DNA of 64,000 nt from an uncultured Actinomycetes bacterium (GCA_963850695.1 CAWKMJ010000002.1:78810-142809), one strand, 5' to 3'. Positions 35,951-64,000 are shown, numbered from the stretch's first letter. Numbers and translations are program-made. Notes: generated from the letters alone by a model not told the origin.

Positions 35951-37260
35951 ATGACGTTTGAAGACAAGCTGCGTGACGGCAGCGCCGTTCTCGGCGTGGT
36001 CGGCTGGGCTACGTGGGCCTGCCGCTCGTCGTCGAGATGGCCAAGGCCGGTCATCGCGTGATCGGGTTCGACGTCTCCGAGGAGAAGGTCGACGCTGGTC
36101 AACGCGGGCGAGAGCTACATCCCCGATGTGCCGGACGACGAGCTGGCTCCGCTTGTGGAGCAGGGCCTCGTGAGCGCGACGACCGACTTCGCGCGCGTCG
36201 CGGAGTGCGACGCCGTCGCCATCTGCGTTCCCACGCCGCTGAACGAGATGAAGGAGCCGGACACGAGCTTACATGGAGTCCGCCGCTCACTCCATCGCGC
36301 CGCACCTCACGAGCGACATGCTCGTCACGCTGGAGTCGACGACGTATCCCGGGCACGACCGAAGAGGTCATCCAGCCCATCCTCGAGGCAGGCGGGCTCG
36401 TGGTGGGGGACGACTCTCTTCCTCGCCTTCTCGCCCGAGCGCGTCGATCCGGGCAACCCGGTCTACCAGACGAAGAACACGCCCAAGGTCGTCGGCGGCG
36501 TCACACACGAGTGCACCGAGCGACGCCGTCGCGCTCTACGAGCGCTTCATCGACACCGTGGTCCCGGTCTCTTCCACGCGCGCCGCCGAGATGACCAAGC
36601 TGCTCGAGAACATCTTCCGCTCGGTGAACATCGCGCTCGTCAACGAGCTGCTCATGCTCTCCGAGCGCATGGACATCAACCTGTGGGAGGTCGTCGACGC
36701 GGCCAAGACCAAGCCGTTCGGCTTCATGCCCTTCTATCCCGGGCCCGGGCCTTGGTGGGCACTGCATCCCCATCGATCCGTTCTACCTGTCGTGGAAGGC
36801 GCGCGAGTACGACTTCCACACCGAGTTCATCGAGCTCTCGGGCAAGATCAACGAGAACATGCCCTACTACGTGGTGCAGCGCCTCATGGATGCGCTGAAC
36901 ACACAGAAGCAAGGCGCTTGCCGGCGCTCGTGTCCTGCTGCTGGCGTGGCGTACAAGGCCGACATCGACGACATGCGCGAGTCGCCGGCGATCAGGATCG
37001 CCGAGCTGCTCCAGGACAAGGGCGCCGATCTCGTCTACCACGATCCGTTCGTGCCCGACGCTTCACGGTGCGACGGCACGGACATCCCTCGAGTGGAGCT
37101 CACTGCCGACGAGGTGCTCGTCGGCCGATGCGGTCCTCGCTCGTGACCGACCACACGGATGTCGACTACGACCTCGATCGTCGAGAAGTCGCCAGCTGGT
37201 ACTCGACACGCGCAATGCACTCAAGGCGCTTCGACGATGACAAGGTGGTGCGCTCTGTGA
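35951..37260 (+). CDS. UDP-N-acetyl-D-glucosamine 6-dehydrogenase-type nucleotide-sugar dehydrogenase (WbpA-like), about six frame changes
   Basis: ATG 35951 after [25 protein letters not shown] (Rossmann), [60 protein letters not shown] (catalytic Cys). Stop overlaps the next start (GTGA at 37257..37260). Confidence 0.85.
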
Positions 37261-38289
37261 GCGATACCGGTCCGCGTAGCGCGTCGTCGGCTTCGGATAC
37301 TGGGGCCCGAACCTGGTCCGGAACCTCGACCAAGCTCGCGGATGCCGACCTCGAAGTGGTGTGTGACCTCTCCGCAGGACAATCTGGCCAAGGTCCACGC
37401 AGCTGTACCCGGACGTCGAGACGACGACGATCTCGACGGCGTGCTTGCGCGACGATGACATCGACGCGGTGGTCGTCGCCACGTCGGCGCCGAGCCACTT
37501 CGCGATCGCCGAGCAAGGTCATCGCCGCAGGCAAGCACTGCTTCGTCGAGAAGCCGCTCACGCTCACGTCCGCCGACGCGGAGGCGCTCGTCACTCGGCC
37601 AGACGAGGCGCGGGCGTCGTGCTCATGGTCGGCCACCTCATGGAGTATCACACCGGCATCAACTGGGTGCGCGACTGCATCGCCTCGGGCGAGCTGGGCG
37701 ACGTGCTCTACGTCTACATGCAGCGGCTCAACCTGGGCAAGGTGCGGACCGAGGAGAACGCCTTCTGGTCGCTGGCTCCGCACGACGTCTCGATCGTCCT
37801 CTACCTCCTCGGCGAGACGCCCGACAGCGTCTCGGCCAGCGGGGCGGACTACCTCACAAACGGTGTGCAGGACGTCGTCTTCGCCAACCTCCACTTCCCG
37901 AGCGGGAAGATGGCCAACATCCATGTGTCGTGGCTCGACCCGCACAAGGTGCGCAAGCTCACCGTCGTCGGCAGCAAGAAGATGCTCGTCTTCGACGACA
38001 TGCAGGCCACCGAGAAGATCTGGATCTACGACAAGGGCGTCGGCGCGCCGGAGGGCGCGCTCGGCTACGGCGAGGACCTCTCGCTGCGCTTCGGCGACAT
38101 CCGGGTCCCGTTCGTCAAGATGGAGGAGCCGCTCGCGCTCGAGGTCCAGCACTTCCTCGACTGCTGTCGCAGCGGCGAGACGCCGCGCAGCGATGGCCGC
38201 GACGGCCTCGATGTCGTGCGCGTGCTCGAGGCCGTCGACGAGTCCATGGCTGCCGAGCGGCAGCGCCCGTGGACATCGAGGTGGAGTAG
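37257..38289 (+). CDS. Gfo/Idh/MocA-family NAD-dependent oxidoreductase (WbpB-like 3-dehydrogenase), about five frame changes
   Basis: [43 protein letters not shown] (EKP motif). Long C-terminal alpha/beta domain [27 protein letters not shown]. Confidence 0.8.
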
Positions 38290-38293
38290 GTCT

Positions 38294-39080
38294 ATGGCCG
38301 AGCAGGACCGCAGCATAGGCGACCTTCACACGCGGCGAAGGCGTGGTCATCGCGACAGATGCGGTGATCGGGTCGTACGTCGCGATCGGTGATCACGTGG
38401 TGATCGAGGCAGGTGTCGTCATCGGCGACGGCGCGGTCATCGGCAACCACGTCACGATCGGCCCGGGCGCACGCCTGGGCGCGGGCGTGCGTGTCTCCGA
38501 CTTCGCTCTCGTCGGCAAGATGCCCGCGCTCTCCAAGCGCTCCACCGCCAAGAGGGAGCCGCTCGACGGCGTCGTGATCGGCGACGAGACCTCCATCGGC
38601 AGCCACACGATGCTCATGGCCGGCACGATCGTCGGCACGCGGCTGCATCGTCGGCGACGGCGCTGGTGTGCGCGAGCGGTGTGTGATCGGGGACGACAGT
38701 GTCGTCGGCCGAGCAGTGACCGTCGAGAACGACACCACGATCGGTGCGCGCGTCGAAGATCCAGTCCGGCGCCTACATCACCGCGTACGTGCACGCTCGA
38801 AGACGATGTCTTCATCGCGCCCATGGTCGTCACGACCAACGACAACTACATGGGCCGCACCGAGAAGCGCCACGATGAGATCGCCGGATGCACGATCCGT
38901 CGCGGTGCCCGGGTCGGCGGCGGGGCGCATATCCTTCCCGGCGTCGAGATCGGCGAGGAGGCGTTCGTGGCCACGGCGGCGGTCGTGACCGGGATGTGCC
39001 GCCGCGCTCGGTCGTCATGGGCGTTCCGGCCAAGGTCGATCAGGACTGTCGCCGACGAGGAGCTGCTCGAGAACCAGTAG
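38294..39080 (+). CDS. Left-handed beta-helix (hexapeptide) N-acetyltransferase (WbpD-like), about three frame changes
   Basis: ATG 38294. Hexapeptide run [43 protein letters not shown] and later [26 protein letters not shown]. Confidence 0.75.
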
Positions 39081-39178
39081 AGGTCCGCGTGACGGGTCGG
39101 TGACGAGTCCGCACGCGGCGCGTCGCATACGGGAGCATAGTCCGAACGACCCGATCACGATAGAGAAGAGGATGCCGC

Positions 39179-40296
39179 ATGGGCGTGCCCCTGCTCGATC
39201 TCAAAGCACAGTACCAGGAGCTCAAGGACGAGCTCGACGCGGCTGTGTTCGACGTGATGTCGAACGCCGCGTTCATCGGCGGGCCCAAGGTCCAGGAGCT
39301 CTCTGAGGCGATCGCCGAGTACTGCGGCACGCAGCTACGCCGTCCCGTGCGGCAAGCGGCACCGACGCGCTCTTCCTGATCCTGGCGGCGATGGGCATCG
39401 GCAAGGGTGACGAGGTCATCACCACGCCGTTCACGTTCTTCGCGACCGCCGAGGCGATCGCGCATGTGGGCGCGACGCCGGTCTTCGTCGATATCGAGCC
39501 GGGCACGTACAACATGGACGTGACCAAGATCGAGGCCGCCATCACCGACCAGACCAAGGCGATCATGCCGGTGCACATCTTCGGCCAGTGCGTCGACATG
39601 GATGCGCTGCAACGCGATCGCCGCAGAAGCATGGTCTCAAGGTCATCGAGGACGCCTGCCAGGCGATCGGTGCCACGTACAAGGGCGCGCACGGCGGGCT
39701 CGCTCGGCCGATGCGGCGGCGTTCTCCTTCTTCCCGAGCAAGAACCTGGGCTGTGCCGGCGACGGCGGCATCATCACCACCGACGACGAGGAGCTTGCCG
39801 CGGCGGCGCGCAAGCTCGCGAACCACGGCACGAGCAAGAAGTACTTCCACGACACCCTCGGCGTGAACTCGCGGCTCGACGCGCTCCAGGCGGCGATCCT
39901 GCTGGTCAAGCTTCCGCATCTGGACCGCTGGAACGCAGAGCGCCGGGCCGCCGCAGCCGTCTACGACGAGCTGCTGGCCGACGTCGCACTCGAGCTTCCG
40001 GTGGCGCGCGATCGGCGAGTCCGTCTATCACCTCTACATCGTCAAGGCCGACTCCGCCGAGCAGGCCGACGACGTCATGGCCGCGCTCAAGGAGGCCGGC
40101 ATCGGCACCGCGAAGTACTACCCGCTCGCCTTGCACGAGCAGGAGGTCTTCGCATCCGAGGACGGCTACGTGATGCCCTCGCTGCCGGTGGCCGAGTCAT
40201 GTGACGGCCGCACGTTCGCCATACCGGCGTTCCCGGGCATCACACGTGAGCAGCAGGAAGAGGTCGCATCCGTCGTGAGGGCCGCGCTGCTCGTGA
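39179..40296 (+). CDS. DegT/DnrJ/EryC1-family PLP-dependent sugar aminotransferase (WbpE-like), about five frame changes
   Basis: ATG 39179 after [75 protein letters not shown] (PLP Lys), [10 protein letters not shown]. Stop overlaps the next start (GTGA at 40293..40296). Confidence 0.85.
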
Positions 40297-41391
40297 AGCG
40301 GCTTACCGTCATATCGGTCGTCGGGGCGCGGCCGCAGTTCATCAAGGCGGCCCCGGTCTGCCGCGCGCTGCGCGAGGGCCACGATGAGATCCTCGTCCAC
40401 TCCGGGCAGCACTACGACTACGAGATGTCCGACGTCTTCTTCGAGCAGCTCGGCATCCCCAAGCCGGACTACAATCTCGCCGTCGGCTCGGGCAGCTCAT
40501 GCCCGTCAGACCGGCGAGATGATGCCGATGCTCGAGGAGCTCTTCGATGAGAAGAGTCCCGACCTCGTGCTGGTCTACGGCGACACGAACACGACGCTCG
40601 CCGGCGGGTCTCGCTGCCGCCAAGCTCGACGATCCCGGTCGCGCACGTCGAGGCGGGCCTGCGCTGCTTCAACCGAGCGATGCCCGAGGAGATCAACCGG
40701 GTCGTCGTCGACCACCTCTCCGAGCTGCTGCTCTGTCCCACGCGACCGCGGCTGTCGCGAACCTCAAGGCCGAGGGCATCATGCAGCGGCGTCCACCTCG
40801 TGGGCGATGTCATGCTCGACACCGCGCGCTTCTTCGCCGAGAGCGTGGACCCTGACCGAGACACTCGCTGAGTTCGGCCTGGGTGCCGGGCGAGTACTAC
40901 TTCGCAACAGTCCATCGCGCCGGCAACAGCGACGACCCGGCGCGTCTCGAGTCGATCGTCCGGGCGTTCTCGCGGCTGGATCACCCGGTGCGTGTGGGCC
41001 GTGCACCCGCGCACCCAGCACGAACCTGGAGCTCCTTCGGCCTGACCGAGATGGTCGAGAAGGCCGAGAACATCCTGCCGGTCCCGCCCGTCTCATACAT
41101 GGAGACCGTCGCGCTGCTCAGCAGCGTCGGCAGGCCTGCTCACCGACTCGGGCGGGATGCAGAAGGAGGCCTACTTCTTCGGCGTGCCGTGCGTGACGCT
41201 GCGGGAGGAGACCGAGTGGGTCGAAACGGTCGAACTGGGCTGGAACGCGCTTGTCGGCTCGGACGAGGAGAAGATCGTTGTCGCTGCGGGCGGTGTCATC
41301 GCGGCCGGGCGAGCGCCCCGACGTGTACGGGGACGGCCACGCGGCTGAAGCTATCGTGAGGGCTATCGAAGAGGAGTTCCGACTGGTATAG
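40293..41391 (+). CDS. Non-hydrolysing UDP-N-acetylhexosamine 2-epimerase (WecB/WbpI-like), about six frame changes
   Basis: [94 protein letters not shown]. Stop 41389..41391. Confidence 0.85.
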
Positions 41392-41449
41392 GGTTCGCTA
41401 CCCAGCGTGGGGCCCTCATGACCGGGATACTCTCGATCACGAGAAGGAC

Positions 41450-42901
41450 ATGGGAAAACACTCAGCCAAGAGGCTCGGCCTGCAAGCCGAAGGAAGTCAA
41501 GACCGCGCGCAAGCCGGCGGCCGATGCGCCACGAGCCGTCGAGCTCCAAGCGTTCGCGGCGGCGCGGGGCGCTCGAGGAATCTCCCGAGCTGCCCGTGCA
41601 TCGCGACCGCCGGCGCGTCGCAGCTCAAGAAGGCGCTGGCCATCGCTGGCGTCGTGCTGCTCGCTGCCGTGATCGGCGCGGCTGCATGGAGCTACGTGTT
41701 CGTGCTGCGCGTCGAGGCCGAGATGCAGGACGACTTCGTGGCTCAGACAGATGAGGCTGCCGAACGCCGTGACGGAGCCGGCGCCGCCAGGCGAGCCGGT
41801 GACGATACTCCTACTCGGGAGCGATATCCGGCCCGAAGGAGGAGGCCGCACGGGCCGACACCATCATCGTGGCCCGCTTCGACCCTGAGACCAAGAAGAC
41901 GCTGCTCGTCTCGATCCCGCGCGACACGCGCGTGGAGATCCCTGGTCACGGTGTGGGCAAGATCAACACCGCCAACTACCTGGGCGGTCCGGCGCTCATG
42001 ATCGAGACTGTCGAGGACCTCCTGGACATCTCGGTCAATCACTACATGGAGATCGACTTCAAGGGCTTCGTCGGCATCGTGGATGCTCTCGGCGGGGTCT
42101 ACGTCGACGTGGACGCCGAGATCGACGACTGGGACGCTTCGAGCCACAGCCCGAGCCATCGCGCCAGCTCACATCGACCCCGGCTACCAGCTGCTCGACG
42201 GGGAGTATGCGCTGACATACGTCCGCAGCCGCGACTTCCCGGATGCGGACTTCACGCGCATGCGGCATCAGCAGGAGTTCTTCAGAGCACTTGCGAAGCA
42301 GTCGACGCGATTCGAGAACGTCTTCAAGATGCCTGCGGCTATCAGCGAGTTCGCCAAGGCCACGACGACCGACCTCGGCGTGTCCGAGATCCTCGGTCTC
42401 GTGCAACTCGGCCCGCGGTATCGATGAGGAGAACATCCAGACGGCCACGCTGAGCGGTGAGTGGCAGAGTCCGTACGTCTATCCCGACGAGGAGCTCATC
42501 GTTCAGCTCGGCACCGCCCTGCGCGAGGGCGGGGACATCGAGGAGGGCGCCACGAGCCGAAGAGGGCGGAGAGGTTTCGCTCGATCCCGCCACCGTCGAG
42601 GTCGACATCCGCAACGGCGCGGGGACCGTGGGCATCGCGTCCGAGGCCTCCGACGTCCTGGGCGCCGAGGGATTCACCGGTCGTTGAGATCGGCAACGCC
42701 AACCAGTTCGTCTACGACGAGACGCTCGTCGTCTACCGCGAGGACCAGCCTCGCGCTGAGGCGGTCGCCAGCGCCCTGCCGGTGGCCAAGGTGATTCCCA
42801 GCCGAGGGATGTACGCCTTCGAGTCCGACGTCCTGGTCGTGATAGGCAAGGACTGGCCCATCGGCTACAAGCCCGGCGACCCCAAGCCGGCGGAGGAGTA
42901 G
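41450..42901 (+). CDS. LytR-CpsA-Psr (LCP) family glycopolymer-peptidoglycan phosphotransferase with C-terminal LytR_C domain, about six frame changes
   Basis: N-terminal TM (LAIAGVVLLAAVIGAAAW). ADTIIVARFDPETKKTLLVSIPRDTRVEIPG, ISVNHYMEIDFKGFVGIVDALGGV, EYALTYVRSRDFPDADFTRMRHQQEF. C-terminal VEVDIRNGAGTVGIASEA...VVEIGNA. Confidence 0.85.
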
Positions 42902-42984
42902 TGCACTCGCGGGCCTGCTCGCGATCGCGGGCGCGACCTCAGACCTCAGGAAGCCAGTCGAGACACAGTCCGGATCTTCCTGCG

Positions 42985-44211
42985 CTAGCTCTCGCTCGCC
43001 GCATCTTCTAGCACGCCGAGGACGCGCGCGGCCATGTCGTCGCGGCCGAACTCGCGCTCGGCCAGGGCGCGGGCGTTGTCACCCATGCGTCGCAGCGCCT
43101 CGGGGTCATCGGCCAGCGCGACGATCGCATCCGCGAGCGCCTCACCGTCGCCCGGTGGCACGTAGACACCAGCGTCGTTGTCCTCGATCAGATCCTTGGT
43201 CCAGCCAGGGGAGTTGACGAGCATCGGCTTGCCGGTCGCGATCCCGTCGAAGAGCTTGTTGGGTGAGTTCGTGTAGAGGATCTCGACGTCCTTGAACAGC
43301 GTCATGAGCATGTCCGCGCTCCGCAGCAGCCGTGGGATCTCCTTCTTGGGGAGAGGGCCGATGAGATCGAGGTTGTCGAGGCCCCGCTCGTCACGCATGC
43401 GCTCGATCTGCGGCAGGGACTTCCCGTCACCCGCGATGAGGAAGACGATGTCGTCTCGGCCACGCTCTTTGAGGATGCGTGCGGCCTGGGGCACGGAGTC
43501 CTCGAGAGCGTTCGAGGGACCGATGGCGCCAGCGTAGCCCACGACGAACTTGCCCTCGAGCCCGAAGCGCTCGACGAGCTCCGGGTCCTTGGGGCCCGGG
43601 GCGAACAGCTCGAGATCGCACGAGTTGGGGACCATGTGCGTGCGCTCGGGGTCGCCGCCGTCGGCTAGGACGCCCGTGACCATGCCGGGGGAGAGCGCGA
43701 TCACAGCCGAGGCATGCCGATAGAGGAAGCGCTCGACTCGCTTGGCCACACGCGCGATGAAGCTGCCGCGCTTGAGAGCCCCCATCTGTATCGCCGCCTC
43801 AGGCCACAGATCGCGGACCTCGAAGACGAAGGGCAGTCTGCGCAGTGCGGCTGTGATCCAGCCGGGGACTCCGACCGTGAGCGGTGTGGAAGTCGCGAAG
43901 ACGACATCGGGGCGCGGGGCTCTGAGACCGAGGTACGCCGCGCCGAGCATGAACAGCGAGAAGGACCAGATGCGGCGAGCGTAGCCCATGTAGTTCGAGT
44001 ACGTGACCCGGACGGCCCGGACATCGATGCCGTCGACGGTACCGTAGTTGAAGACGTGCTCGGAGAACTCGTCGGTGAGCCGGGAGCTGCTCGTCACGAT
44101 CGTGACCTGGTGACCCTGTTCCACCCAGCGGCGAGAGAACTCGTATGAACGGATGAGTCCCAGCGACGACTCATGGGTGGCGAAGAACTGATGGAAGTAG
44201 AGGATTCTCAC
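42985..44211 (-). CDS. GT4-family glycosyltransferase (intact 408 aa)
   Basis: MRILYFHQFF...; N-terminal GT4 acceptor domain and C-terminal donor domain with LIAGDGK, NSPNKLFDGIATGKPML (E/K-x7-E-type region). Confidence 0.85.
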   Translation of the reverse strand: MRILYFHQFFATHESSLGLIRSYEFSRRWVEQGHQVTIVTSSSRLTDEFSEHVFNYGTVDGIDVRAVRVTYSNYMGYARRIWSFSLFMLGAAYLGLRAPRPDVVFATSTPLTVGVPGWITAALRRLPFVFEVRDLWPEAAIQMGALKRGSFIARVAKRVERFLYRHASAVIALSPGMVTGVLADGGDPERTHMVPNSCDLELFAPGPKDPELVERFGLEGKFVVGYAGAIGPSNALEDSVPQAARILKERGRDDIVFLIAGDGKSLPQIERMRDERGLDNLDLIGPLPKKEIPRLLRSADMLMTLFKDVEILYTNSPNKLFDGIATGKPMLVNSPGWTKDLIEDNDAGVYVPPGDGEALADAIVALADDPEALRRMGDNARALAEREFGRDDMAARVLGVLEDAASES

Positions 44212-44408
44212 GCGGTCGGGGTCTCCCAGCCGATGCGTCGTGCCTGGCAGTGATATGCGTCACACATCTCGTGCGCAAACATGCCGAATTCTACCATTGA
44301 GACGCACGTGGGGGCGTGTGCCGTGTGGCGCTCTACCCACTTCCCGGCGTGTCTTGTCCGGATGACTCAGCGGTGGCCTGCGGGAGGCCTGAGACAGGAG
44401 GGTTCGCC

Positions 44409-53441: not shown

Positions 53442-54677
53442 CTACTCGATGACCGATTCGTAGACCTCGGCAACGCGCTCCGTCGTGCGTCCAAGATCGT
53501 ACTCTTCCGCTCGTGCTGCTCCCACCTCGATGAGCCGAGCGGCGAACTCGGGCTCGGTGAGGACTCGGGTGATCGCACGGCCGAGCGCTGCCACGTCCCC
53601 CGGATCCACGAGCTCGCCCGCGCCGCCGCGCAGCAGGTTGGGGATCCCGCCGATGCACGAGGCCACGACGGGCGTGCCGGATGCCAGTGCCTCGATGATC
53701 GAGCGCGGCTGACCCTCTCGCAGATGAGAGGGGAGCACGAAGACATCGGCCGAGGAGAGCGTGTCGACGACACCATCGGGTCCCAGGTCGCCGAGAAGCT
53801 CGCAGGATCCCGCGTCGAGCCCTGCTTCCCGCGCAAGCGATTCGACGTCGAGATCGACGACGGGGCCAGCCAGCACGAGATGGGCGTTGGGTACGCTGGC
53901 AAGGACGGACACCATGGCCCGTAGCAGGTCCTCGACGCCCTTGCCAGCAGCGATGCGCCCGATGTAGGCGACTGTGGCCGGGCTCGATCCCGTTGCTGCG
54001 GACCCGCGGCTCTCGACATCGGAGGTCGACCGCATCGCAGCGCCGAACCGCCCCAGATCCACGCCGTTGGGTATCACCGTGGGCTCGAGGCCGGGGACGC
54101 GCGCGGACAGCCCATCGGCGACATCCGTGCTCACCGCTATGACAGCGTCCATCTCGGCCAGGTTCTCGATCACCAAGTCGCCGAGTGCTTGTGGCGCGTC
54201 GTCGGCGAACGCGGAGAGGCTGTGCTGGGTCGCCACGCTCGGCAGCGAGGTGATGCCGGCCATGCGGCCGTAGAGCACGCGCATGTCGGGTTGGTGGTAG
54301 TGGACGACGTCGGGTCGGTGGCCCTGGACGGCTCGCGACAACCCGAGCACCTGGGCGAACGTGGGCCCGAACCGCTTGTCCTGCGCCTCGGCCAGCCCCA
54401 TGAGCGACCGCGTGCTGCTCACCAGGGAAGCGTTGCCAAGAGCCGCCATCGCCCCGCCGAGTGACTTCGACAGCGGTGTCGCCGAGTAGACATCGCCCCA
54501 CTCCTCGGCGATCGGCTCGTCGGTCGGAGGCATGTTGTCCGCGTAGACTGCGACGTCGTGGCCTGCCGAGGAGAGTCCCTCGGCGAGCTCGAGAACGTGG
54601 GTGGCGATACCGCCGGTGCTGCGTGAGCCCATGTGTCCGGGAAGCGGACCGACGATCAGGATGCGTCGCGCGCTCAC
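53442..54677 (-). CDS. GT4-family glycosyltransferase (intact 411 aa)
   Basis: MSARRILIVGPLPGHMGSRSTGGIATHVLELAEGL...; C-terminal LVLAGPV..., LPSHLREGQPRSIIEALASGTPVVAS (E-x7-E region). Lies 7 nt downstream of wzx on the same strand. Confidence 0.85.
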   Translation of the reverse strand: MSARRILIVGPLPGHMGSRSTGGIATHVLELAEGLSSAGHDVAVYADNMPPTDEPIAEEWGDVYSATPLSKSLGGAMAALGNASLVSSTRSLMGLAEAQDKRFGPTFAQVLGLSRAVQGHRPDVVHYHQPDMRVLYGRMAGITSLPSVATQHSLSAFADDAPQALGDLVIENLAEMDAVIAVSTDVADGLSARVPGLEPTVIPNGVDLGRFGAAMRSTSDVESRGSAATGSSPATVAYIGRIAAGKGVEDLLRAMVSVLASVPNAHLVLAGPVVDLDVESLAREAGLDAGSCELLGDLGPDGVVDTLSSADVFVLPSHLREGQPRSIIEALASGTPVVASCIGGIPNLLRGGAGELVDPGDVAALGRAITRVLTEPEFAARLIEVGAARAEEYDLGRTTERVAEVYESVIE

Positions 54678-54684
54678 GTGTGGA

Positions 54685-56352
54685 TCACTCCCCGGGTTGA
54701 GGCGGGTCGGACTCGGGCGGAAGCTCGGTCTCGCTCGGCTCCTCGGCGTGCTCGTCGCTGGCGGCGCGCGTGGGGTGCTTCATGCGGCGCGTGAGGCCCG
54801 CGACGATCTCGCGGGCGTAGTGCAGCTCGTCGCGACGGACTCCACCGAGCAGCAGCAGCGCGATGATGTAGACCGTCAGCCCGACGAAGACGGCTGCGAC
54901 GAGCAGCAGCATCGGGTGGGCGGTGACGTAGCTCGCCAGACTCAGCACGGCGGCCATGATGAGCGAGGCGGCCGTGATGCGCAGCAGCGCGTTCCACGGG
55001 ACGAGCCAGGGCATGTAGGCGCGGCTCCTGAACCAGGTGAGGGCCAGGAGCAGGAAGTAGGAGAGCACAGTCGTCACACCGGCGGCGGCGTACCCGTACT
55101 CGGGGATCAGCACGGCGTTCGCCCCGATGTTGAAGGCCGCTGCAAGCAGCGTGTTCTGCATGATGATCTGCGACTTCTTGTGAAGCCCGAGGCCGGTGCC
55201 TGCCAGCTGCGCGAACCCGGAGAACATGGCGGCGGCGGCCACGAACGGCAGCACGACCGCTGCGGGCCAGTACTCGGACGCGGTGAACGCTCGCATGAAG
55301 AGCCCGGATGTGGCAGCCATGCCGGCCAGCAGCGGGAAGGTCACCATCGCCGCGTAGCGCGTGAACTGCGACTGGACCTTCTCGGCCATCGCTTGAGTGC
55401 GCTTCTCGTAGGTCTCCATGAGCACGGGCGTCATCGTCATGATGAGCGGGAGCGTGACGAGCTGCATGAGCTTCTCGCCGAGTCCATAGGCCACCGAGTA
55501 GAGGCCGACCTCGGTCGCTCCGCGGAAGAACTGGATCATGTATCGGTCAGCCAGCACGAGCACCCAGGAAGAGACGCCCACAGGGATGAGCGGGACTCCG
55601 TAGGAGAGGAACTCGCCAAGCAGCGGACGGCTGTAGTTGCCGGGCGTGAGCGAGCCCTCACGGCTCACAGCTCGGAGCCCAAGCGGCAGCAGCACCAGGT
55701 TGCCGATGGCCACGCCGAGCAGGATGCCGAGCGATCCCATCTCCATCGGCCACACGAAGATGATCGAGAGGGTGGTCGTGAGCACGGTGTTGGCCACGGA
55801 CAGCTTGGCGAACGAGGAAGCGCGGTTGGCCGCGCGCAGCACCTGCAGCAACAGGCTCATGATGTAGTGGAAGAAGAAGTAGGCGATGCCGGCGGGCACG
55901 AGGCGGGCAAGCCCCTCCTCGATCTGGCCTTGGAGCAGCAGCGCACCGGCTGCAACGAGCACGCCTGCGCCCGTCAGCGCGACCAGCGCGCTCCACAGCA
56001 CCGTCGAGATGTACTCGTTGGTGCGCCCCTCCCTCTCGGTCGCCCAGTAGAAGCGCACCGCCGAAGAGGACAGCCATGCCGTGACGATGCTTGCCACGAA
56101 CGTGGCCGCCGAGGTGACGAGGTAGAAGTAGCCGTAGTCCTCCGCGCCGATCAGGCGCGTGAACAGCGGCACGGTGATCAGCGATGTGAGCGCCGGGATG
56201 AACCGGACGGGGAAGTACTTCAGGGCGTCGGAACCCGCGCCTCGAAGGATTCGTTTGAGGATGCTCTCGCCGAGGTCGCCGTCGTCAGCGCCCCTCTCGG
56301 CAGGTCTCTCCTCCTCGTGCCCCTGCTGTCCGGATGAACTCTCGGCCGCCAT
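54685..56352 (-). CDS. MOP-superfamily polysaccharide flippase (Wzx-like), intact 555 aa
   Basis: Acidic N-terminus, then about 14 hydrophobic segments (FIPALTSLITVPLFTRLIGAEDYGYFYLV ...). Typical oligosaccharide-flippase length and topology. Confidence 0.8.
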   Translation of the reverse strand: MAAESSSGQQGHEEERPAERGADDGDLGESILKRILRGAGSDALKYFPVRFIPALTSLITVPLFTRLIGAEDYGYFYLVTSAATFVASIVTAWLSSSAVRFYWATEREGRTNEYISTVLWSALVALTGAGVLVAAGALLLQGQIEEGLARLVPAGIAYFFFHYIMSLLLQVLRAANRASSFAKLSVANTVLTTTLSIIFVWPMEMGSLGILLGVAIGNLVLLPLGLRAVSREGSLTPGNYSRPLLGEFLSYGVPLIPVGVSSWVLVLADRYMIQFFRGATEVGLYSVAYGLGEKLMQLVTLPLIMTMTPVLMETYEKRTQAMAEKVQSQFTRYAAMVTFPLLAGMAATSGLFMRAFTASEYWPAAVVLPFVAAAAMFSGFAQLAGTGLGLHKKSQIIMQNTLLAAAFNIGANAVLIPEYGYAAAGVTTVLSYFLLLALTWFRSRAYMPWLVPWNALLRITAASLIMAAVLSLASYVTAHPMLLLVAAVFVGLTVYIIALLLLGGVRRDELHYAREIVAGLTRRMKHPTRAASDEHAEEPSETELPPESDPPQPGE

Positions 56353-56471
56353 GGACCTCCTCAGTCTCGGCGCACCGCGTCGGAAGCTATTCTATTATGG
56401 TCGTTCGTGGGCGGTCGCGTCTCGTTCGCGCTGTTGCCGAGATGACACGCGGCTGCAACCTGCGACGACGT

Positions 56472-56486
56472 ACACTGTTCCAGTGT
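56472..56486. promoter_or_regulatory. Inverted repeat ACACTG-TTC-CAGTGT in the divergent wzx / GT4 intergenic region (candidate operator)
   Basis: Perfect 6-bp arms read directly, inside the 187-bp divergent region 56353..56539, which also has an AT-rich TATTAT at about 56389. Confidence 0.3.
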
Positions 56487-56539
56487 TGCGAGAGCGCGCC
56501 TTGCCGATGCGGGCGCTCGGGAACGTAGAGAGGCTCTTC

Positions 56540-57718
56540 GTGCGCATAGGCATGCTACTCATGGGCGGGACCTACCCGCCTGACATACGCGTGGAGAAGG
56601 AGGCTCGTGTGCTCGCCGAGGCGGGCCATGAGGTCTACCTCCTCACATCCGACAAGGACGGCCGTCCTGCCGAGGAGCCCATGCCCCCGCTCACCGTCTA
56701 TCGCTACGTGCATCGGGGATCGCGTGTGCGTTCGAAGGCCGAGGCCGCAGTGACGCTTGCCACCTGGCGCAACCTGGGCTGGAAGCGCGCCATCGACTCG
56801 TTCGTGCGCGATGCGGGAGTAGATGCACTCCACGTCCACGATCTGCCCGCCGTCAAAGTGGGCGTCGAGGTGGCTCGCAGCGCCGGGATCCCCGTGGTCT
56901 TCGACATGCACGAGAACTATCCGGCTGCGGTGTCCTTCTGGAAGCGCAGCACCGCGGCTCGGCTCGCGCAGACGCCCGCGCGCTATCGCGACTACGAGCG
57001 CTGGGCCGTGAACGCCGTCGACCGCGTGGTCTGTGTGGTGGACGAGGCGGCCGAGCGCGTGCGCGGACTTGGCGTGCCGCCTGAGCGGATCGTGGTGTTC
57101 GGCAACGTGGATGACTGCACCCAGGGCGGCACGTGGCAGGGGACCGACCACGCGCTCACGGTCGCCTATGCGGGCGGCTTCGGACCGCATCGCGGGATCG
57201 ACACGCTCGTGCGCGCTTTCGCCAAGGTCCACAGTCGCGATCACCACGCCCGCCTCGTACTGATGGGCGCTGGCGATGGCGAGAGCGAGCTGCGCGAACT
57301 CGTCGTCGCTCACGGACTGCGTGGGTGCGTCGAGTTCACCGGCTGGGTCGGCGACGCGACCATGCGCGCCAACCTTGCCGAGGCCACCATCGGTACGGTG
57401 CCGCACGCCAAGAACGAGCACACTGACTCGACCGTGCCGCACAAGCTGTTCCAGTACATGTGCATCGGCCTGCCGGTCGTCGTGACCGATTGCGCGCCTC
57501 TCGCTCGCATCGTCGAGGAGACGGATGCGGGACGCGTGGCGATCGCAGGCGATGACAACTCGCTTGCCGAGGCGATCCTCGAGCTGGCCGACCCCGAAGC
57601 CGCACGGGCGGCATCGGATGCCGGGCGCGCCGCCGTCGCGGAGCGGTACTCGCTCGGCCACGAGGGACGTGTGCTCGCAGGGATGTACGCAGAGTTGGGC
57701 AAGGAGTCGGACCTGTGA
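56540..57718 (+). CDS. GT4-family glycosyltransferase (intact)
   Basis: GTG 56540 after GAGAGG (ORF opens at 56159). VRIGMLLMGGTYPPDIRVEKEARVLAEAGHEV..., LVLMGAGDGE, HKLFQYMCIGLPVVVTD. Confidence 0.85.
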   Translation: MRIGMLLMGGTYPPDIRVEKEARVLAEAGHEVYLLTSDKDGRPAEEPMPPLTVYRYVHRGSRVRSKAEAAVTLATWRNLGWKRAIDSFVRDAGVDALHVHDLPAVKVGVEVARSAGIPVVFDMHENYPAAVSFWKRSTAARLAQTPARYRDYERWAVNAVDRVVCVVDEAAERVRGLGVPPERIVVFGNVDDCTQGGTWQGTDHALTVAYAGGFGPHRGIDTLVRAFAKVHSRDHHARLVLMGAGDGESELRELVVAHGLRGCVEFTGWVGDATMRANLAEATIGTVPHAKNEHTDSTVPHKLFQYMCIGLPVVVTDCAPLARIVEETDAGRVAIAGDDNSLAEAILELADPEAARAASDAGRAAVAERYSLGHEGRVLAGMYAELGKESDL

Positions 57719-59154
57719 CGACATCGACGCAGAGTGCACAGCCCTTCGCGCTCTCCTTCTCGTGGCGAGAGGCGCTCATCGCAGCCGTCGCCGGCCTTGC
57801 GGCACTCGGGCTCGTGGTCTACGGCGTGCTCGACATGCGTCACCTCGTGATCCTCGTCCTTGCGCTGCCCCTGCTGGCCGTCATCGCGACGCGGCCGGAG
57901 TGGGGACTCATCGCACTCTTCGGGGCGGCCACCCTCGATGTTCAGGGCCGCCTGGTCGAGGTTGCCGGGGTGCAGTTCACGCTGTATCAGGCACTTGCCG
58001 GCTTCCTCTTCATCGTCTTCGTGGTGCGGTACAGGCAGGGGAGGATCGCCTTGCCGAGGACCCCGCTGGACGTGCCGCTGCTCGTCTTCATGGCTCTGGC
58101 GGCGACATCGATCGTGGTCGCCCCGAGCGTGCTCTCCTCGGTGGTCGACTGGATATCGCTGGCCTCGAGCATCTTCCTCATGTACGCGGTCGTGATCTTC
58201 GCGGACTCGGAGAAGAAGCTTGCCACCGTCGTCTGGGGCTCGATCGTCGATCTCCGTGGCGCTGGCCGGCTTCGCCTTGCTCGAGCGGGCCGGGATCTTC
58301 TCGATCAGAGGCGATTTCCTCACCACGTACGAGCGCGGCATCAGGCCCCAGGTGACCTTCGGTGACACCAACATGTACGGCACGCTCACCTACGTCACGC
58401 TTGCGCTCTGCGGTCCCGCTCCTTCTCCAGACGCGGGATTGGCGGCTGCGCATCGTAGGAGTCGCGGCAGTCGTGCTGAACATCGGGGCCCTGTGGGCGA
58501 CACACTCCCGCGGCGCCTGGATAGCAGCGGTAGTCGTTGCGCTCGTCATTCTCGTGCTGGTGCGTATCCCGTGGTGGGTCCGCATGGCGGCGATCATCGT
58601 GGTGGTAGCTCTCGCGTTGGGCTTCGCTGTCCTTGAGGCGGAGTTCATCGCGACGCAGCTCCCAGGTGCCGAGGACACCGATGTGGACCCCGCGCGCTAC
58701 TACATGATCCTGGCCGGTCTCGACATGGCCACCGACTATCCCTTTGGCGTGGGGCTTGGGGGCTTTCCCGAGGTCTACCCGCTGTATCGCCAAGGTGGTC
58801 GTACGCGCGAGCCTTGTGGAGTCGCACATGGCCTACCTGACGCTATTGGTCGAGACGGGCCTTCTCGGCCTGCTCGCCTACCTGTGGGTCCTGTGGCGCT
58901 TCGCGAAGAATCTCGTGCCCGCGGCCTTCAAGCTGCCGGCAGGACGCGACCAGGCGCTCCTGGTGGGTTCGATCGCTGCGGTGGCGGGTGTCGCCACCCA
59001 GGCGTTGACGTATAGTCTCGAAGGGCACAAGCTTCTGTGGTTCGCACTCGGGGTGGGGATGGCGGTCTACGTTCGTCACCTCGGTACGAGCGCAGGGGAT
59101 GAGGCAGAAACCGTTGACGAGCCCGCCGCGGGCTCTCAAGAGGAGGTTGCATAG
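57715..59154 (+). CDS. O-antigen ligase/polymerase-family (Wzy_C) multi-pass membrane protein, three frame changes
   Basis: GTG 57715 overlaps the previous stop (GTGA). About 10 TM segments. NIGALWATHSRGAWIAAVVV and periplasmic-loop region, ESHMAYLTLLVETGLLGLLAY. Confidence 0.75.
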
Positions 59155-59158
59155 CTAC

Positions 59159-59958
59159 ATGGCCAGGACAAGTGCGAGTACGGTCCTGCAGGCATCGATC
59201 AGGCGGTGGCCGATCGTCCTCGTAGCAGCGCTCGTCGTGGGCGCAGCTGCGTTCGGATACGCGCTGCTCACGAACGAGGGACCCTCGCAAGAGGCCGTGT
59301 CGGCCGTGCGCATCAAGACGGTCTCGGGCGTGCCGGTGATCGCCACCGTCGACATGGGTGTTGCCATGGCCAAGTCGGCATCGACGCTTCAGTCGGCGGC
59401 CGAGTCAGCGCGGCGTGGAGGCCGATGCTGTGGGCAGCGTGACCGCATACGTCGATCCCAGCGATGTCCAGCTCGTCCGCATCGCCGTCCGGGCCGACGA
59501 CCCGGAGGCGGCCGAGACGATCGCCGACGCGATGGCCATGCAGGTTCGCACCGGACTCATCACTCTCCTGGAGCCCGATCTCACCTACAACCGTCGAGGT
59601 GGCCGAGGAGAACGAAGCGCGGGTCGAGCAGCTCCAGTCCGAGCTGGACGAGATCGAGGGCCGACTCGAGTACCGAGCAGCTCGATGAGGGCGAGACATG
59701 GGGCCTCCGGCAGACCGCGTGGGGTCTCCGCAATCAGCTGTGGAGCTACGCCGACCGGGCTCAGACACGCGGTACAACTACGATCGCTGGGAGGGCGCTG
59801 CGCTGGTCGAGGGCGAGGCCGTGGCAGTCGAGGTCGACCAGACCTCCGACATCATCGGGCTCACCGTCCAGGGGCTGCTCATCGGCGCGATCGCGGGTAT
59901 CGCCGTGGCGTTCATTCTGGGCTTCTCGGACGCACGCAAGGAGGCCGCAGCCGCCTAG
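59159..59958 (+). CDS. Wzz-like polysaccharide co-polymerase / chain-length determinant (two terminal TM helices, coiled-coil middle), about four frame changes
   Basis: ATG 59159. RRWPIVLVAALVVGAAAFGYALL, middle EENEARVEQLQSELDEIEGRL, C-terminal GLLIGAIAGIAVAFILGF. Confidence 0.65.
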
Positions 59959-60010
59959 TATCGGCAGCACCGCCGAAGGTCAGACCCGATCACCGTCGTG
60001 GAGCCCGTCA

Positions 60011-61222
60011 TCAGCGGCGTTCGTCCATGAGCGTCTCGAGCGCGTCGATCTCTGCGTCGAGTCTCTCGTCCCACGTCCAGAGGTTCTCTCGCGCCCACGA
60101 TGCAGCCGAGGCTCCCAGCGAGCGAGCCGCCTCCGGGTCCTCGAGCAGGGCGGCGGCAATCGATGCCACCGAGCCCTCTTCGGCCACCGGCACGAGGCGT
60201 CCGTTGATGCCGTCCTTCACCAGGTCGGCCGTGCCACCGGCATCGAGTGCGATCACCGGGCACTCCAGCACCATCGACTCGATCACGGGGTTGGCGAGGT
60301 TGGAGTAGTCATAGAGCGAGAGCATGACGTCGGCGGAGGTGTAGTAGGAGGCCAGCTCCTTGCGATTGATGCCCCCGACGAAGTGCGCCTGGTCCTGAAG
60401 GCCGAGATCGCGAGCGAGTCGGGCAGAGCGACTCCTCCTCAGGCCCCGTGCCGACGACGATCATGTGAGCGTCGATGCCCCGGTCGCGGACCTCGGCCAG
60501 GACGCGCAGCGCCCGATCGACACGCTTCCAGTGCGAGAGACGGGAGACGGTGAGCAGCAGGGGCGCCTCGGCCGGTATGGAGACATCCGGTCGCACATCG
60601 CGGGAGGGGAGCTCGGCGATGGAGAAGTCGGCCCCGTTCATCCAGAAGCGGATCCTGTCTGCCGGCACCCCGTTCTGGATGAGGTAGCGCTCACCCTCGG
60701 TGCCATCGTTGGTCATGATGACGAGATCGGCAGGCGAGCCGAGCGCGCGGATGTGCTTCCAGAACCTCGCGCCAGCCATCGCCATGCTCTGCCGCACGGA
60801 CATGAGCGTGCCCTGGTATCGCGCGACGCACGGCAGGTCGAAGGCGGCAGCCGCCTTGGCCGCCACCGGGGTGCCGTAGATCTCGTAGCCGTAGACGAGG
60901 TCGACATCGCCGCGCTCGCAGACACCTGCTTCACGGCGGGCCAGGCCGACCACTGGAACGTGTACCAGGCCAGCGTGTCGGTAGCCCAGCCGACCTTGCG
61001 GACGTTGCGCCACAGGCCATGCAGCCGATGATCGAACTCGACGAGCTCCACGCTCTTGGGCATGTCGGACTCGTCGATGTAGTCGAGTCTCGGGGTGACG
61101 AGCGTGACCCGGTAGCGCTCAGCGAGCGCGTGGAGGGTGCGGTGGAACGCCGGTCCACCCACAGCGCGGGCCATGGACCACAGTGGGATCTGGCTGATCA
61201 GGACGACATGACGTTTCGGCAT
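60011..61222 (-). CDS. GT4-family glycosyltransferase, three frame changes (near 60320, 60430, 60930)
   Basis: MPKRHVVLISQIPLWSMARAVGGPAFHRTLHALAERY..., LLTVSRLSHWKRVDRALRVL, IVVGTGPEE, SNLANPVIESMVLECPVIALDAGGTADLV (E-x7-E region). Confidence 0.8.
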
Positions 61223-61356: not shown

Positions 61357-62512
61357 ATGCCCAAGGAGCGCGGGAAGGTCTGCATCGTCCAGTACAACGC
61401 GTCGACGTTCCTGACGCGCGTTGACCGCTCGGCGCGAACACTGGCCGAGATGGGATACGAGGTCGTGCTGATCGCGCTGCAGCTCGATGACGAGCCGGCC
61501 TTCGAGCAGCGCGATGGCTACGTGGTCAAGCGCGTGCCGATGAAGTGGCGCAAGAAGACGAAGCCATCTGCGCGCGTTTCGCTGGATCGAGGCTGTCTTC
61601 CGTACGTACTCGGCGGCCTCACGCGAGCGTGCCGCGATCTACGACTCCCGCGACATCTATCCGCTCATGGTGTGCTGGCTGGCGGCCAAGCGTCGCCGCG
61701 GCAAGCTGGTCTACGACTCCGACGAACTCAACCTCGATCGCAACTGGCCGTGGACGCACAAGCGCTGGTGGCGCGTGCTCGGCTCGGCGTACGAGGGATT
61801 CTTCATCCGTCGTGCCGATGCAGTGATCACCACCGACGAGGGACGGGCCGACATCCTCGAGAAGCGCTACTCGATCCCGCGCCCCGTGGTGGTCATGAAC
61901 GTTCCCGACCTCATCGACCCCATCGAGGCCGACGAGGAGTTTCGTGCGCGCGCTCTCGGCGACCAGGAGCACCTGCTCATCTACACCGGCACGCTGATCC
62001 CCAACCGTGGCCTGCTCGAGTGCGTGGACGCGCTCGAGGAGCTGCCAGGCTGCGCTCTGGCATACGTCGGCTTCGGCCACATCGCCGACAAGATCGAGGC
62101 ACGCATCGCCGAGAGGGGACTGCAGGAGCGAGCACAGGTCTTTGGGGCCGTGCCCTACGACACTCTGATCGGCTACACGGCTGCGGCTGATATCGGCCTC
62201 GTGCCGATCGTGGGTTCGTGCCTGAGCTACGTCTACGCTGCGCCGAACAAGCTCTTCGAGTACATGATGGCCGGCGTGCCGGTGGTCGCGAGCGACCTTC
62301 CCGACATGGCTCGTGTGGTCAAGGAAGAGCATGTCGGCTCCCTCATTGCCGATCCGACAGACCCTGCAAGCATCGCCTCGGCAGTGCGCTTGTTGCTCGA
62401 GGGCAAGGAGCCGCTCTCGGCCTACGGCGCGCGCGGGCAGACGGCGGTGCGGGAGAGGTTCAATTGGGGGCTCGAGAAGCGTACACTCATCAACACCTAC
62501 GAGAATCTCTGA
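61357..62512 (+). CDS. GT4-family glycosyltransferase, one frame change near 61565
   Basis: MPKERGKVCIVQYNASTFLTRVDRSARTLAEMGYEV, YDSRDIYPL, LIYTGTLIPNRG, APNKLFEYMMAGVPVVASD. Confidence 0.82.
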
Positions 62513-62685
62513 ACACAAGAGCGGGTGTGCCGAGATGACGCGGCGAGATACGCGTCGGCGGCCCGTGACTTGCTTGAACAGCACGGTCCGGTGAAGTGAT
62601 CGGCGGGCGCAGCAACAGGGCCTGCGGCAACGCCAGCGCTGCTCAGTGGCGCATGTGCCCATGCGGGCGACAAAGGAGAGTCCAC

Positions 62686-64000
62686 GTGCTACACAGAAGT
62701 CTCGCGCGTCTCGTTTCTGGCCGGCCCCGCCTCTTCGTGCTCGGCGTCGTGGTGGTCGCGGCGCTCCTGACGCCCTCGGCCGCCATCGGCTGGTATGGCG
62801 ACCATTTCGACGACGGTGTCTCAGGGCAGGCCGTCTACGAGTCCATGGCGATCCATGCCGAGGCGGTCCACCGAGGCGACATCACGTACGTGGCCTACCA
62901 GGGCGTGAACCTCGATCCCTACATCGTGACCTACAACCACGTGACTGACACGTGGGACGGGCCGGTCAAGGTCGGCGAGAACCAGCTCGCCGAGCCCGAC
63001 CAGTGGAATCCCGATGACTCGCATGGTGCGCCGTCCCTGCTCATCGACGACTCCGGCTACATTCACGTCCTGTACGGCGCACACGGGACGAAGATCCAGC
63101 ACGCACGTTCGACCTCCCCTTGGAACATCAACTCGTGGACGACTCTGTCGACGATAGGCTCCTCGGCCTCCTATCCCCAGATGCTGCACAAGGGCGCGAC
63201 CGACCCCAAACACCAGCTCTTCTATCGTGTGGACGGCAGCAGCGCATGGTACCGCGGGGGCTGGGTCCGCTCCGAGTCCACTCGACGGTGGCGCGTGGAG
63301 CTACAAGGAGATCGTCGTTGCCGGCGACCCCGTCACGTGGTCCTGGTACGCGAACTTCTCCAGAGGTGAGAGCGATCGCGTTCACGCGGCGCTGATCTCA
63401 CAAGACAGGTTCGCCGGAGACCCGTTCGTTCGCTACGACGTGTTCTACATGTACCGCGACGCCGCGGACGGCGCCTGGAAGGACGTCGAGGGTTCCGTGA
63501 TCTCGACGCCCGGCATGGCGCCGCCCGACCACAGCGTGCTCACATCGGCAGGGCTCGAGGCGAAGGTCTACGGCGACTTCAACTACCAGAACCAGGTCGT
63601 CGTCGCAGACGACACGGAGGGCAACCCCGGTCTGCTCTTCGTCAGCGGGCAGGGAAACGGCCCCAACACGTACTCATGGATGTTCTCGCGCTGGTCGGGA
63701 AGCTCGTGGGAGACCACTGAGATCGCGAAGACCGATCACTTCATGGACTCGGGTGCGCTCGAGTATGAGAGCACATCCACGGTCCGCGCGATCCTGACGC
63801 GCGAGGGGACTCGCGGCGAGAGCACCTACAACGATCGCTACATCGACCGCGGTGGAGACATCGAAGTCTGGCTCTCCACCGACGGCGGCGCCACATGGGC
63901 GCCAGACAACACGACCGCCTCACCCGGTGGCAAGATCGCGACCTCCGATCTCGACACGGGGATCATCTTCAACGACCCGCAGGTCGTGCAATCCGACTCG
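62686..64000 (+). CDS. Membrane-anchored or secreted beta-propeller-like protein with Asp-box (BNR) motifs, BNR-4-like; 3' end runs off the window; one frame change near 63290
   Basis: GTG 62686 after AAAGGAGAG. TM/signal RLFVLGVVVVAALLTPSAAIG. HGAPSLLIDDSGYIHVLYGAHG. Asp-boxes S-x-LDGGASW (about 63280) and STDGGATW (about 63880). Confidence 0.55.

Follow-up and report, generated by a model that had tools for sequence, protein, structure and literature searches.

In Clostridioides difficile, triplets of the CWB2 module bind the wall polymer PSII, whose locus neighbours the cwp genes (PMC4973711). The polymer is attached by LCP enzymes (PMC5065235, PMC10100865). Its locus has been modelled on the Wzx/Wzy pattern, with MviN as flippase, CD2777 as polymerase, LcpA/B and an initiating transferase; between the biosynthetic genes lie those for the amidase CD2784 and for CD2782, a CWB2 'cell wall binding protein' (PMC5065235). 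Among the Peptostreptococcaceae, CWB2 or SLH repertoires co-distribute with the enzymes of secondary cell-wall polymer biosynthesis (bioRxiv 10.1101/2025.04.02.646754), CD2777 being the enzyme that accompanies CWB2, and in Geobacillus stearothermophilus a non-pyruvylated secondary cell-wall polymer with 2,3-diacetamido-2,3-dideoxymannuronic acid anchors S-layer proteins (PMC4232325). Reviews list CWB2 in Actinobacteria as well, mainly in Micrococcales (PMC5817068). Here we describe a 64,000-nucleotide stretch of DNA from an uncultured bacterium (GCA_963850695.1, CAWKMJ010000002.1:78810-142809; hereafter the window), in which genes for CWB2 proteins lie inside a glycopolymer locus at positions 35945-64000. 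On balance we favour the reading that this is the main secondary cell-wall glycopolymer locus of a monoderm (Gram-positive), Anaerosomatales/OPB41-like member of the Coriobacteriia, and that the polymer it would produce is the ligand of the CWB2 modules encoded within it.

Frameshift correction was required for about half of the genes, and every statement made below on a frameshifted gene depends on stitched translations. The CWB2-bearing proteins, the small protein encoded among them and a further candidate at the end of the window are the following:

44409-46184 (alternative start 44316), plus strand: secreted protein with CarboxypepD_reg/SdrD_B-like beta-sandwich domains and a C-terminal CWB2 triplet (7e-41; repeats 45198-45506, 45564-45866, 45882-46178)
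46112-46841, plus strand: conserved hypothetical protein with an N-terminal transmembrane segment and a probable frameshift near 46670, without Pfam match
46977-49916, plus strand: secreted subtilase with prodomain, Peptidase_S8 and CWB2 triplet by Pfam (CWB2 1e-39 in the stretch 47574-49916; repeats 48600-48926, 48954-49256, 49272-49562), frameshifted in 47280-48040
49956-51686, plus strand: secreted protein with an N-terminal CWB2 triplet (4e-40; repeats 50079-50390, 50418-50732, 50733-51020) and a YkuD L,D-transpeptidase domain
51693-53423, plus strand: secreted Amidase_3 N-acetylmuramoyl-L-alanine amidase (2.9e-49) with a C-terminal CWB2 triplet (4.6e-54; repeats 52512-52796, 52830-53111, 53112-53408)
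62578-64000, plus strand: BNR_4 domain protein (Pfam BNR_4 1.1e-19), running past the window end

The membership of four of these proteins in the CWB2 family is solid by profile comparison. Pfam PF04122 scored 135-181 bits (cut-off 24.9) over three stretches in each of the four, a homologue-built CWB2 hidden Markov model found 12 repeats and no more in the whole 64 kb, three per protein and all within 45198-53408, and a signal peptide is visible at the start of all four. An initial annotation of the same DNA had proposed four consecutive CWB2-triplet proteins and had asked that the repeats be scored as CWB2. The repeats of all four lie above the curated PF04122 threshold, and the number of proteins, their triplets and their signal peptides stood; the genes are not strictly consecutive, since the small membrane protein gene at 46112-46841 stands between the first and the second. 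Repeats at the same triplet position share 36.6% identity versus 26.9% between different positions. Ten of the 12 repeats have a P-[ILV]-[ILF]-[LI] motif resembling 'PILL', which is needed for anchoring in C. difficile (PMC4973711); in two proteins, repeat 3 is without the Pro. The best solved-structure match of the amidase is C. difficile Cwp6 (5j72, 1.7e-47; triplet alone 2e-29), followed by 5j6q (1e-15) and 7acy (5e-12), which represent Cwp8 and SlpA. The amidase has 752 homologues, and orthologues of the YkuD protein in the related loci L001, L003, L004 and L007 (loci of relatives are given here by L numbers) show 45-51% identity. The BNR_4 protein is 81% identical to an L006 gene annotated as BNR_4 + CW_binding_2 (802 aa), an architecture that recurs in L004 and L088, and it is by this resemblance a probable fifth CWB2-anchored protein. 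The presence of CWB2 genes inside the polymer locus is a real observation, far beyond chance.

Two further features of the battery were seen. The small protein is about 230 aa long and has a single N-terminal transmembrane segment. It always heads or stands within a CWB2 battery, and its orthologues are:

L001, 7329-8024
L003, 3883-4620
L004, 1973-2647
L006, 4489-5169

A minus-strand open reading frame at 46115-46774 was considered as the true gene and rejected, since the plus-strand product alone is conserved in L001, L003 and L004. The His (HGTHVAG) and Ser (GTSMA) motifs of the subtilase are separated by 650 residues, which include the CWB2 triplet and a MAM-like segment, and the wall anchor is therefore inserted within the S8 catalytic domain.

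The battery is preceded by a run of co-oriented genes for sugar-nucleotide enzymes and by an LCP gene:

35945-37254, plus strand: NDP-sugar 6-dehydrogenase (WbpA/WecC-like), frameshifted; Pfam UDPG_MGDP_dh N, central and C domains, 4.5e-43
37257-38318, plus strand: Gfo/Idh/MocA sugar 3-dehydrogenase candidate (WbpB role), frameshifted; Pfam GFO_IDH_MocA and C-terminal domains
38319-39074, plus strand: left-handed beta-helix N-acetyltransferase (putative WbpD/WlbB role), frameshifted; Pfam Hexapep, six stretches, 1.7e-27
39179-40290, plus strand: DegT-family sugar 3-aminotransferase (WbpE-like), frameshifted; Pfam DegT 5.9e-117
40293-41391, plus strand: non-hydrolysing UDP-GlcNAc 2-epimerase family enzyme (putative WecB/WbpI role), frameshifted; Pfam Epimerase_2 1.5e-93
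41450-42898, plus strand: LCP glycopolymer-peptidoglycan ligase with LytR_C, frameshifted; Pfam LytR_cpsA_psr 5.5e-42, LytR_C 1.7e-15

All five enzyme classes of the diacetamido-uronic-acid pathway are encoded in 35945-41391. The 6-dehydrogenase scored 367 bits against TIGR03026, above the cut-off of 190 for the NDP-sugar dehydrogenase subfamily, and its orthologues in L087-L095 are 67-76% identical; the epimerase scored 282 bits against TIGR00236, above the WecB equivalog cut-off of 210. The aminotransferase matched the Pseudomonas aeruginosa WbpE structure 3nu7 at 3.7e-92 (313 bits), and the acetyltransferase matched the 3-N-acetyltransferases QdtC (3fs8, 1e-21) and WlbB (3mqg, 3e-16). For the 3-dehydrogenase candidate the top NCBIfam match was the archaeal UDP-GlcNAc 3-dehydrogenase (9e-39, sub-threshold, a family-level assignment only), and its PDB matches were 3c1a and 7bvj, WbpB/WlbA not being among them. 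Since the oxidoreductase is nearer to UDP-GlcNAc 3-dehydrogenases, the step order may follow an archaeal/GnnA-type route. The five-gene set corresponds to what a UDP-2,3-diacetamido-2,3-dideoxy-uronic acid pathway requires, the product and the step order being predictions. This is the pathway that the initial annotation had named, and its five classes were confirmed with the 3-dehydrogenase placed at family level only. The LCP phosphotransferase named there is supported by both Pfam domains and by TIGR00350 (131 bits, cut-off 62), and an N-terminal transmembrane segment is present in the stitched sequence. As an LCP gene is part of the locus, the polymer is probably wall-attached.

The remaining genes of the glycan machinery flank the battery:

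42985-44211, minus strand: GT4 glycosyltransferase 'GT4a', a conserved core enzyme of the locus; Pfam GT4 domains
53442-54677, minus strand: GT4 glycosyltransferase 'GT4b'; Pfam
54685-56352, minus strand: Wzx-type (MOP superfamily) flippase; Pfam Polysacc_synt PF01943 5.6e-17, NCBIfam HfsF 4.5e-39, sub-threshold
56540-57718, plus strand: GT4 glycosyltransferase 'GT4c'; Pfam
57715-59154, plus strand: Wzy_C-family membrane protein, polymerase or ligase, frameshifted; Pfam PF04932 4.7e-18 on the stitched sequence
59159-59958, plus strand: bitopic protein with two transmembrane segments and a coiled coil, frameshifted; no family match
60011-61222, minus strand: GT4 glycosyltransferase 'GT4d', frameshifted; Pfam Glycos_transf_1 1.3e-31
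61357-62512, plus strand: GT4 glycosyltransferase 'GT4e', frameshifted; Pfam

Profile searches of the corrected proteins against Pfam upheld all earlier domain assignments except that of Wzz. Five GT4 transferases had been proposed and Pfam matches were obtained at all five positions; the Wzx-like flippase and the Wzy_C-family polymerase/ligase were likewise recovered with the Pfam values listed, the two roles of the latter being indistinguishable. For the supposed Wzz-like co-polymerase at 59159-59958, neither Pfam nor NCBIfam gave a match even at E<5, and the resemblance to a co-polymerase is in topology only. The gene is broken into fragments of at most 65 aa. Its positional equivalent in L087 has a sub-threshold Wzz match (0.0017, 19 bits, cut-off 25.5).

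These assignments bear on the possibility that the glycan machinery, in whole or in part (Wzx, Wzy_C as an O-oligosaccharyltransferase, some of the GT4 enzymes), glycosylates the neighbouring secreted proteins in the manner of an S-layer-type O-glycosylation cluster. The Pfam Wzy_C family takes in ligases and O-oligosaccharyltransferases besides polymerases, the NCBIfam near-matches were the O-antigen ligase RfaL and a putative O-glycosylation ligase, Wzx showed a faint match to an O-glycosylation flippase, and the co-polymerase assignment is without support. None of those NCBIfam matches, however, comes near its cut-off; the LCP gene belongs to the fixed core of the locus, beside GT4a in all relatives, which points to attachment to peptidoglycan, and the locus persists in L091 and L095 without CWB2 or other secreted-protein genes nearby. 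We consider protein glycosylation an improbable function of the locus.

The locus was found at a fixed address in relatives, in the order atp operon, murA, fabZ, pathway genes, LCP, GT4a and a second dehydrogenase, then variable transferases, Wzx and Wzy_C. Orthologues of GT4a number more than 100 (64-97% identity, named Coriobacteriia or Anaerosomatales), and wherever the flank of a related locus extends to that side, GT4a adjoins the LCP gene. Such a locus might make a capsule or exopolysaccharide that is released or only loosely associated and with which the CWB2 modules do not interact: Wzx/Wzy-type loci with several GT4 genes commonly produce these polymers, and hypervariability between relatives is typical of capsule loci. 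LCP enzymes attach capsules to peptidoglycan too, on the other hand, so even a 'capsule' would be wall-linked, and the conserved place beside murA, together with a core of dehydrogenase, LCP and GT4a kept throughout the order, suggests that the product is essential to the wall and not an accessory exopolysaccharide. A released polymer therefore seems to us to have little likelihood.

The association of CWB2 genes with the glycan locus was followed from both sides. The loci found from the CWB2 side, through amidase orthologues of 50-69% identity, all lie inside the glycan locus (L001/L002, L003, L004, L006 and L007) and hold 3 to 7 triplet proteins each; L007 and L008 were the useful loci among the matches listed in a profile scan of genome contigs with the amidase alignment. 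From the glycan side, through GT4a orthologues of at least 65% identity, a CWB2 protein was found in the locus in L087, L088, L090 and L171. The linkage thus recurs in nine related loci (L001, L003, L004, L006, L007, L087, L088, L090 and L171). Counted by lineage, 7 of the 11 sampled have CWB2 genes inside the locus, and in the other 4 none was found within 10 kb. A metagenome scan with the GT4a alignment gave six close and 74 distant orthologues among the matches listed, and the 74 loci around the distant GT4a-family genes, which serve as a negative control, contained no CWB2 repeat. More distant amidase-CWB2 genes (32-40% identity; L005 and L008) sit among housekeeping genes.

Two of the related loci carry other genes at or near the site of the battery. 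At positions 4747-6968 of L001, a cassette of Vsr, an NgoMIV-type restriction enzyme and a cytosine methylase lies in the glycan locus where the CWB2 battery begins. At positions 11311-18173 of L089, a nonulosonic-acid-type pathway (NeuB, PglD_N, CTP_transf_3, Epimerase_2) takes the place of the battery and the GT4 genes, and its presence at the equivalent site marks the locus as a hypervariable surface-glycan site.

A possible exchange of anchors was seen in SpoIID proteins. SpoIID orthologues carry a CWB2 triplet in L001, L004, L087 and L171, and in L087 and L171 the locus has the diacetamido-sugar genes. In L089 and L170, where the locus is without WbpB/D/E-like genes, it is not a triplet but a series of unrelated repeated domains, each of about 125 aa, that comes after the SpoIID module. 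These alternative SpoIID proteins, whose catalytic part is 38-42% identical to that of the CWB2-bearing orthologues, are:

L089, 18224-20728
L170, 5118-7217

Their C-terminal repeats, which gave a faint CE2_N-like match, may be an alternative wall anchor. Such a swap is what the docking hypothesis would predict, in lineages that are few and not all independent.

Several observations weigh against the polymer of this locus as the CWB2 ligand. No CWB2 gene was found within 10 kb in the glycan-side loci L089, L091, L095 and L170, and the linkage across relatives, which the initial annotation had put forward as a check, is accordingly recurrent and not universal. L095 has orthologues of the GT4c, Wzx and GT4d of the window without a CWB2 battery between them; because it keeps the glycan genes in this way, the battery is read as an insertion/deletion polymorphism in a syntenic locus. 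Relatives differ in the variable part of the locus, yet the CWB2 triplet of the amidase stays 50-60% conserved, and any ligand in this polymer must therefore be a conserved part of it. In L001 the first dehydrogenase gene seems to stand immediately ahead of LCP, without the B/D/E genes, and three CWB2 proteins are present nevertheless, by which the anchor-swap correlation is weakened. The isoelectric points of the triplets are mixed (5.0, 9.6, 6.2 and 5.0) and not uniformly basic; an electrostatic argument for an anionic ligand was dropped on account of this span of 5.0-9.6, and charge therefore argues neither way. The 3-dehydrogenase and the acetyltransferase were matched at family level only, and the rest of the genome, outside the window, may encode other wall polymers.

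The same observations enter into the explanation that the locus is a cell-envelope gene neighbourhood without ligand relation, CWB2 binding peptidoglycan or another polymer encoded elsewhere. The CWB2 genes would then pile up because a hypervariable, horizontally exchanged region tolerates insertions and is co-expressed with wall synthesis. The polymorphism of the battery, its lack in L095 and the absence of any CWB2 gene within 10 kb in L091, L089 and L170 are in keeping with this, as are the charge of the triplets and the housekeeping contexts of the distant amidase-CWB2 homologues in L005 and L008. In L001 an unrelated restriction-modification cassette has been inserted where the battery begins, which shows the site to be open to cargo. 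In L005 too, however, a GT4 gene and a second CWB2 gene adjoin the amidase gene. Moreover, different CWB2 proteins (SpoIID, BNR_4, GSDH, S8, YkuD, amidase) occupy different sites of the locus from one lineage to another, which argues for repeated gain or retention and not for a single accident, and the one CWB2 ligand that has been defined by experiment is a polymer attached by LCP enzymes, its genes being neighbours of the cwp genes (PMC4973711). We give the neighbourhood explanation an appreciable but minor weight and retain the polymer of the locus as the favoured ligand.

One component of the proposed assembly is encoded upstream of the locus:

25419-26510, plus strand: WecA/TagO-type polyprenyl-phosphate GlcNAc-1-P transferase; TIGR02380 and MraY-family matches on the stitched sequence

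This transferase, which had been pointed out in the initial annotation, matched TIGR02380 at 8e-38 with 130 bits, below the equivalog cut-off of 326, and it is the sole candidate for, and likely to be, the initiating enzyme for the polymer. The gene is located 9 kb upstream of the locus, ahead of the atp operon, within the order prfA-prmC-sua5-glyA-upp-deaminase-wecA-atp operon-murA-fabZ at 19675-35836 (from stitched translations only, wecA alone having been profile-tested). Membership of wecA in the locus was rejected on the ground of this housekeeping gene order. A wecA gene immediately upstream of the atp operon is the arrangement in Mycobacterium tuberculosis as well, and the closeness of wecA to the locus is probably ancestral synteny.

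Taken together, the genes suggest the following model. The five enzymes would convert UDP-GlcNAc to UDP-2,3-diacetamido-2,3-dideoxy-hexuronic acid, probably of the manno configuration. With the upstream-encoded WecA as the priming enzyme, the GT4 transferases would assemble a repeat unit on undecaprenyl phosphate. Wzx would flip the repeat unit across the membrane, the Wzy_C protein would polymerise it, and the LCP/LytR_C enzyme would join the resulting acidic, teichuronic-acid-like polymer to peptidoglycan. The inserted block of 9 kb would supply Sec-exported wall-remodelling proteins (beta-sandwich protein, subtilase, L,D-transpeptidase, amidase and probably the BNR protein), each with a CWB2 module that, from its homology to Cwp6, Cwp8 and SlpA, is predicted to fold as a pseudo-trimer and to hold its protein non-covalently on a wall polysaccharide. 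The most likely ligand would be the polymer of this locus or its conserved core. This identity of the ligand is plausible by analogy and gene linkage, and the sugar product, the assembly order and the wall attachment are proposed in the same conditional sense.

A more far-reaching proposal is that the Anaerosomatales CWB2 triplet recognises a diacetamido-uronic, teichuronic-acid-like polymer and that anchor and polymer are exchanged jointly as a cassette. We regard it as speculative and rather unlikely. If true, the polymer would be a class of CWB2 ligand not known before, and another anchor would have been swapped in where the diacetamido-sugar genes are replaced (L089 and L170). The rule of anchor/polymer co-evolution would be extended from Firmicutes to Actinomycetota, and the amidase-CWB2 gene embedded in a polymer locus in both phyla would speak of an ancient shared system or of transfer across phyla. 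Should the simpler proposal on the ligand hold, CWB2 would no longer be a speciality of Firmicutes, and a second, chemically different ligand would help to define what the module recognises. In either case the locus offers a concrete testable model of the polymer made, the mode of its attachment and the enzymes that dock on it. No paper was found that describes this arrangement in Coriobacteriia or Anaerosomatales, and nothing published was found on wall polymers or surface-protein anchoring in Anaerosomatales/OPB41.

The source is, as judged from its closest homologues, an Anaerosomatales/OPB41-like member of the Coriobacteriia, represented by an uncultured metagenome-assembled genome; the homologues of both the amidase and GT4a carry names of Coriobacteriia or Anaerosomatales metagenome-assembled genomes, and the G+C content of the 64-kb window is 66%. 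Anaerosomatales/OPB41 is a widespread subsurface lineage, cultured only recently, and its cultured Anaerosomatales are Gram-positive rods (PMC9686372). In a plot of G+C by codon position and in the Viterbi path of codon usage, the frame changed every 150-250 bases in most genes between 2.9 and 42.9 kb, which amounts to 4-7 switches per kb over 2900-42950 (40 kb) versus 0.3-0.7 per kb in three other stretches; 42950-46200 and 48100-57700 were almost free of them. The switches are read as indel errors of long-read metagenome assembly and not as pseudogenes, because the atp operon genes upstream are equally broken and yet conserved once stitched, and because L006, 87% identical at the DNA level, is broken at sites other than those of the window. 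Real pseudogenisation of the sugar pathway was rejected on these grounds, the switch density being the same in the ATP synthase genes, murA and fabZ, whose stitched fragments gave well-conserved ATP synthase subunits, MurA and FabZ. The uneven density of the switches resembles patchy polishing of a long-read assembly, and the break in synteny between the window and L006 at 42978 coincides exactly with one boundary of that density. Promoter and terminator scans over 41300-60200 gave fewer sites than shuffled controls.

Compared with described systems, the LCP protein has the same architecture as the actinobacterial LCP-LytR_C ligases such as Streptomyces CglA (PMC11481543), the role of which is to join wall glycopolymer to peptidoglycan, whereas no CWB2 link is described for the CglA-type systems. 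The sugar pathway has the same five classes in one operon as the Wbp/Wlb pathway (P. aeruginosa WbpA/B/E/D/I, Bordetella WlbA-D) and the archaeal acetamido-sugar pathway. It differs from Wbp/Wlb in that its oxidoreductase is nearer to UDP-GlcNAc 3-dehydrogenases than to WbpB/WlbA and in that the product is predicted to feed a Gram-positive wall polymer and not a lipopolysaccharide or an N-glycan. In G. stearothermophilus the same acidic sugar as predicted here is the charged component of a peptidoglycan-linked docking polymer, but the organism is a Firmicute and the docking domain, a conserved N-terminal region, belongs to neither the SLH nor the CWB2 type. As in the Peptostreptococcaceae, anchor type and polymer chemistry appear to be jointly exchanged (SpoIID in L087/L171 versus L089/L170), although here the comparison is of a few loci and not of complete genomes, in another phylum and with other enzymes, and L001 is a possible counter-example.

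The closest parallel remains C. difficile, with which the locus shares secreted CWB2-triplet wall proteins including an Amidase_3-CWB2 protein (Cwp6 being CD2784), position-specific repeats with a PILL-like motif, and a single locus in which genes for an LCP ligase, a polymerase, a MOP-family flippase and numerous glycosyltransferases are combined with CWB2 genes, these being placed within it or next to it (PMC4973711, PMC5065235). The two differ in phylum (Actinomycetota here, Firmicutes there) and in the sugar, a predicted diacetamido-uronic acid here and a mannose-containing hexasaccharide phosphate there. They differ further in their transferases (GT4 here, mainly GT2 there), in the flippase (Polysacc_synt/Wzx here, MviN there), in the initiating transferase, which is outside the locus here and inside it (CD2783) there, and in the domain order of the amidase, which is reversed relative to Cwp6. 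A SlpA-like S-layer protein and SecA2 were, unlike in C. difficile, not found among the genes of the 64-kb window. The initial annotation had seen the same logic as in C. difficile at work here, with a Wzx/Wzy/Wzz route as a point of contrast. The CWB2 homology, the LCP enzyme and the recurrent linkage bear out the likeness; the contrast was overstated, the C. difficile locus being itself Wzx/Wzy-like (PMC5065235), and its Wzz component found no support. The organising principle is already published for Firmicutes, in C. difficile (PMC4973711) and the Peptostreptococcaceae (bioRxiv 10.1101/2025.04.02.646754), and what the present locus adds, incrementally, is a further phylum and a different predicted sugar.

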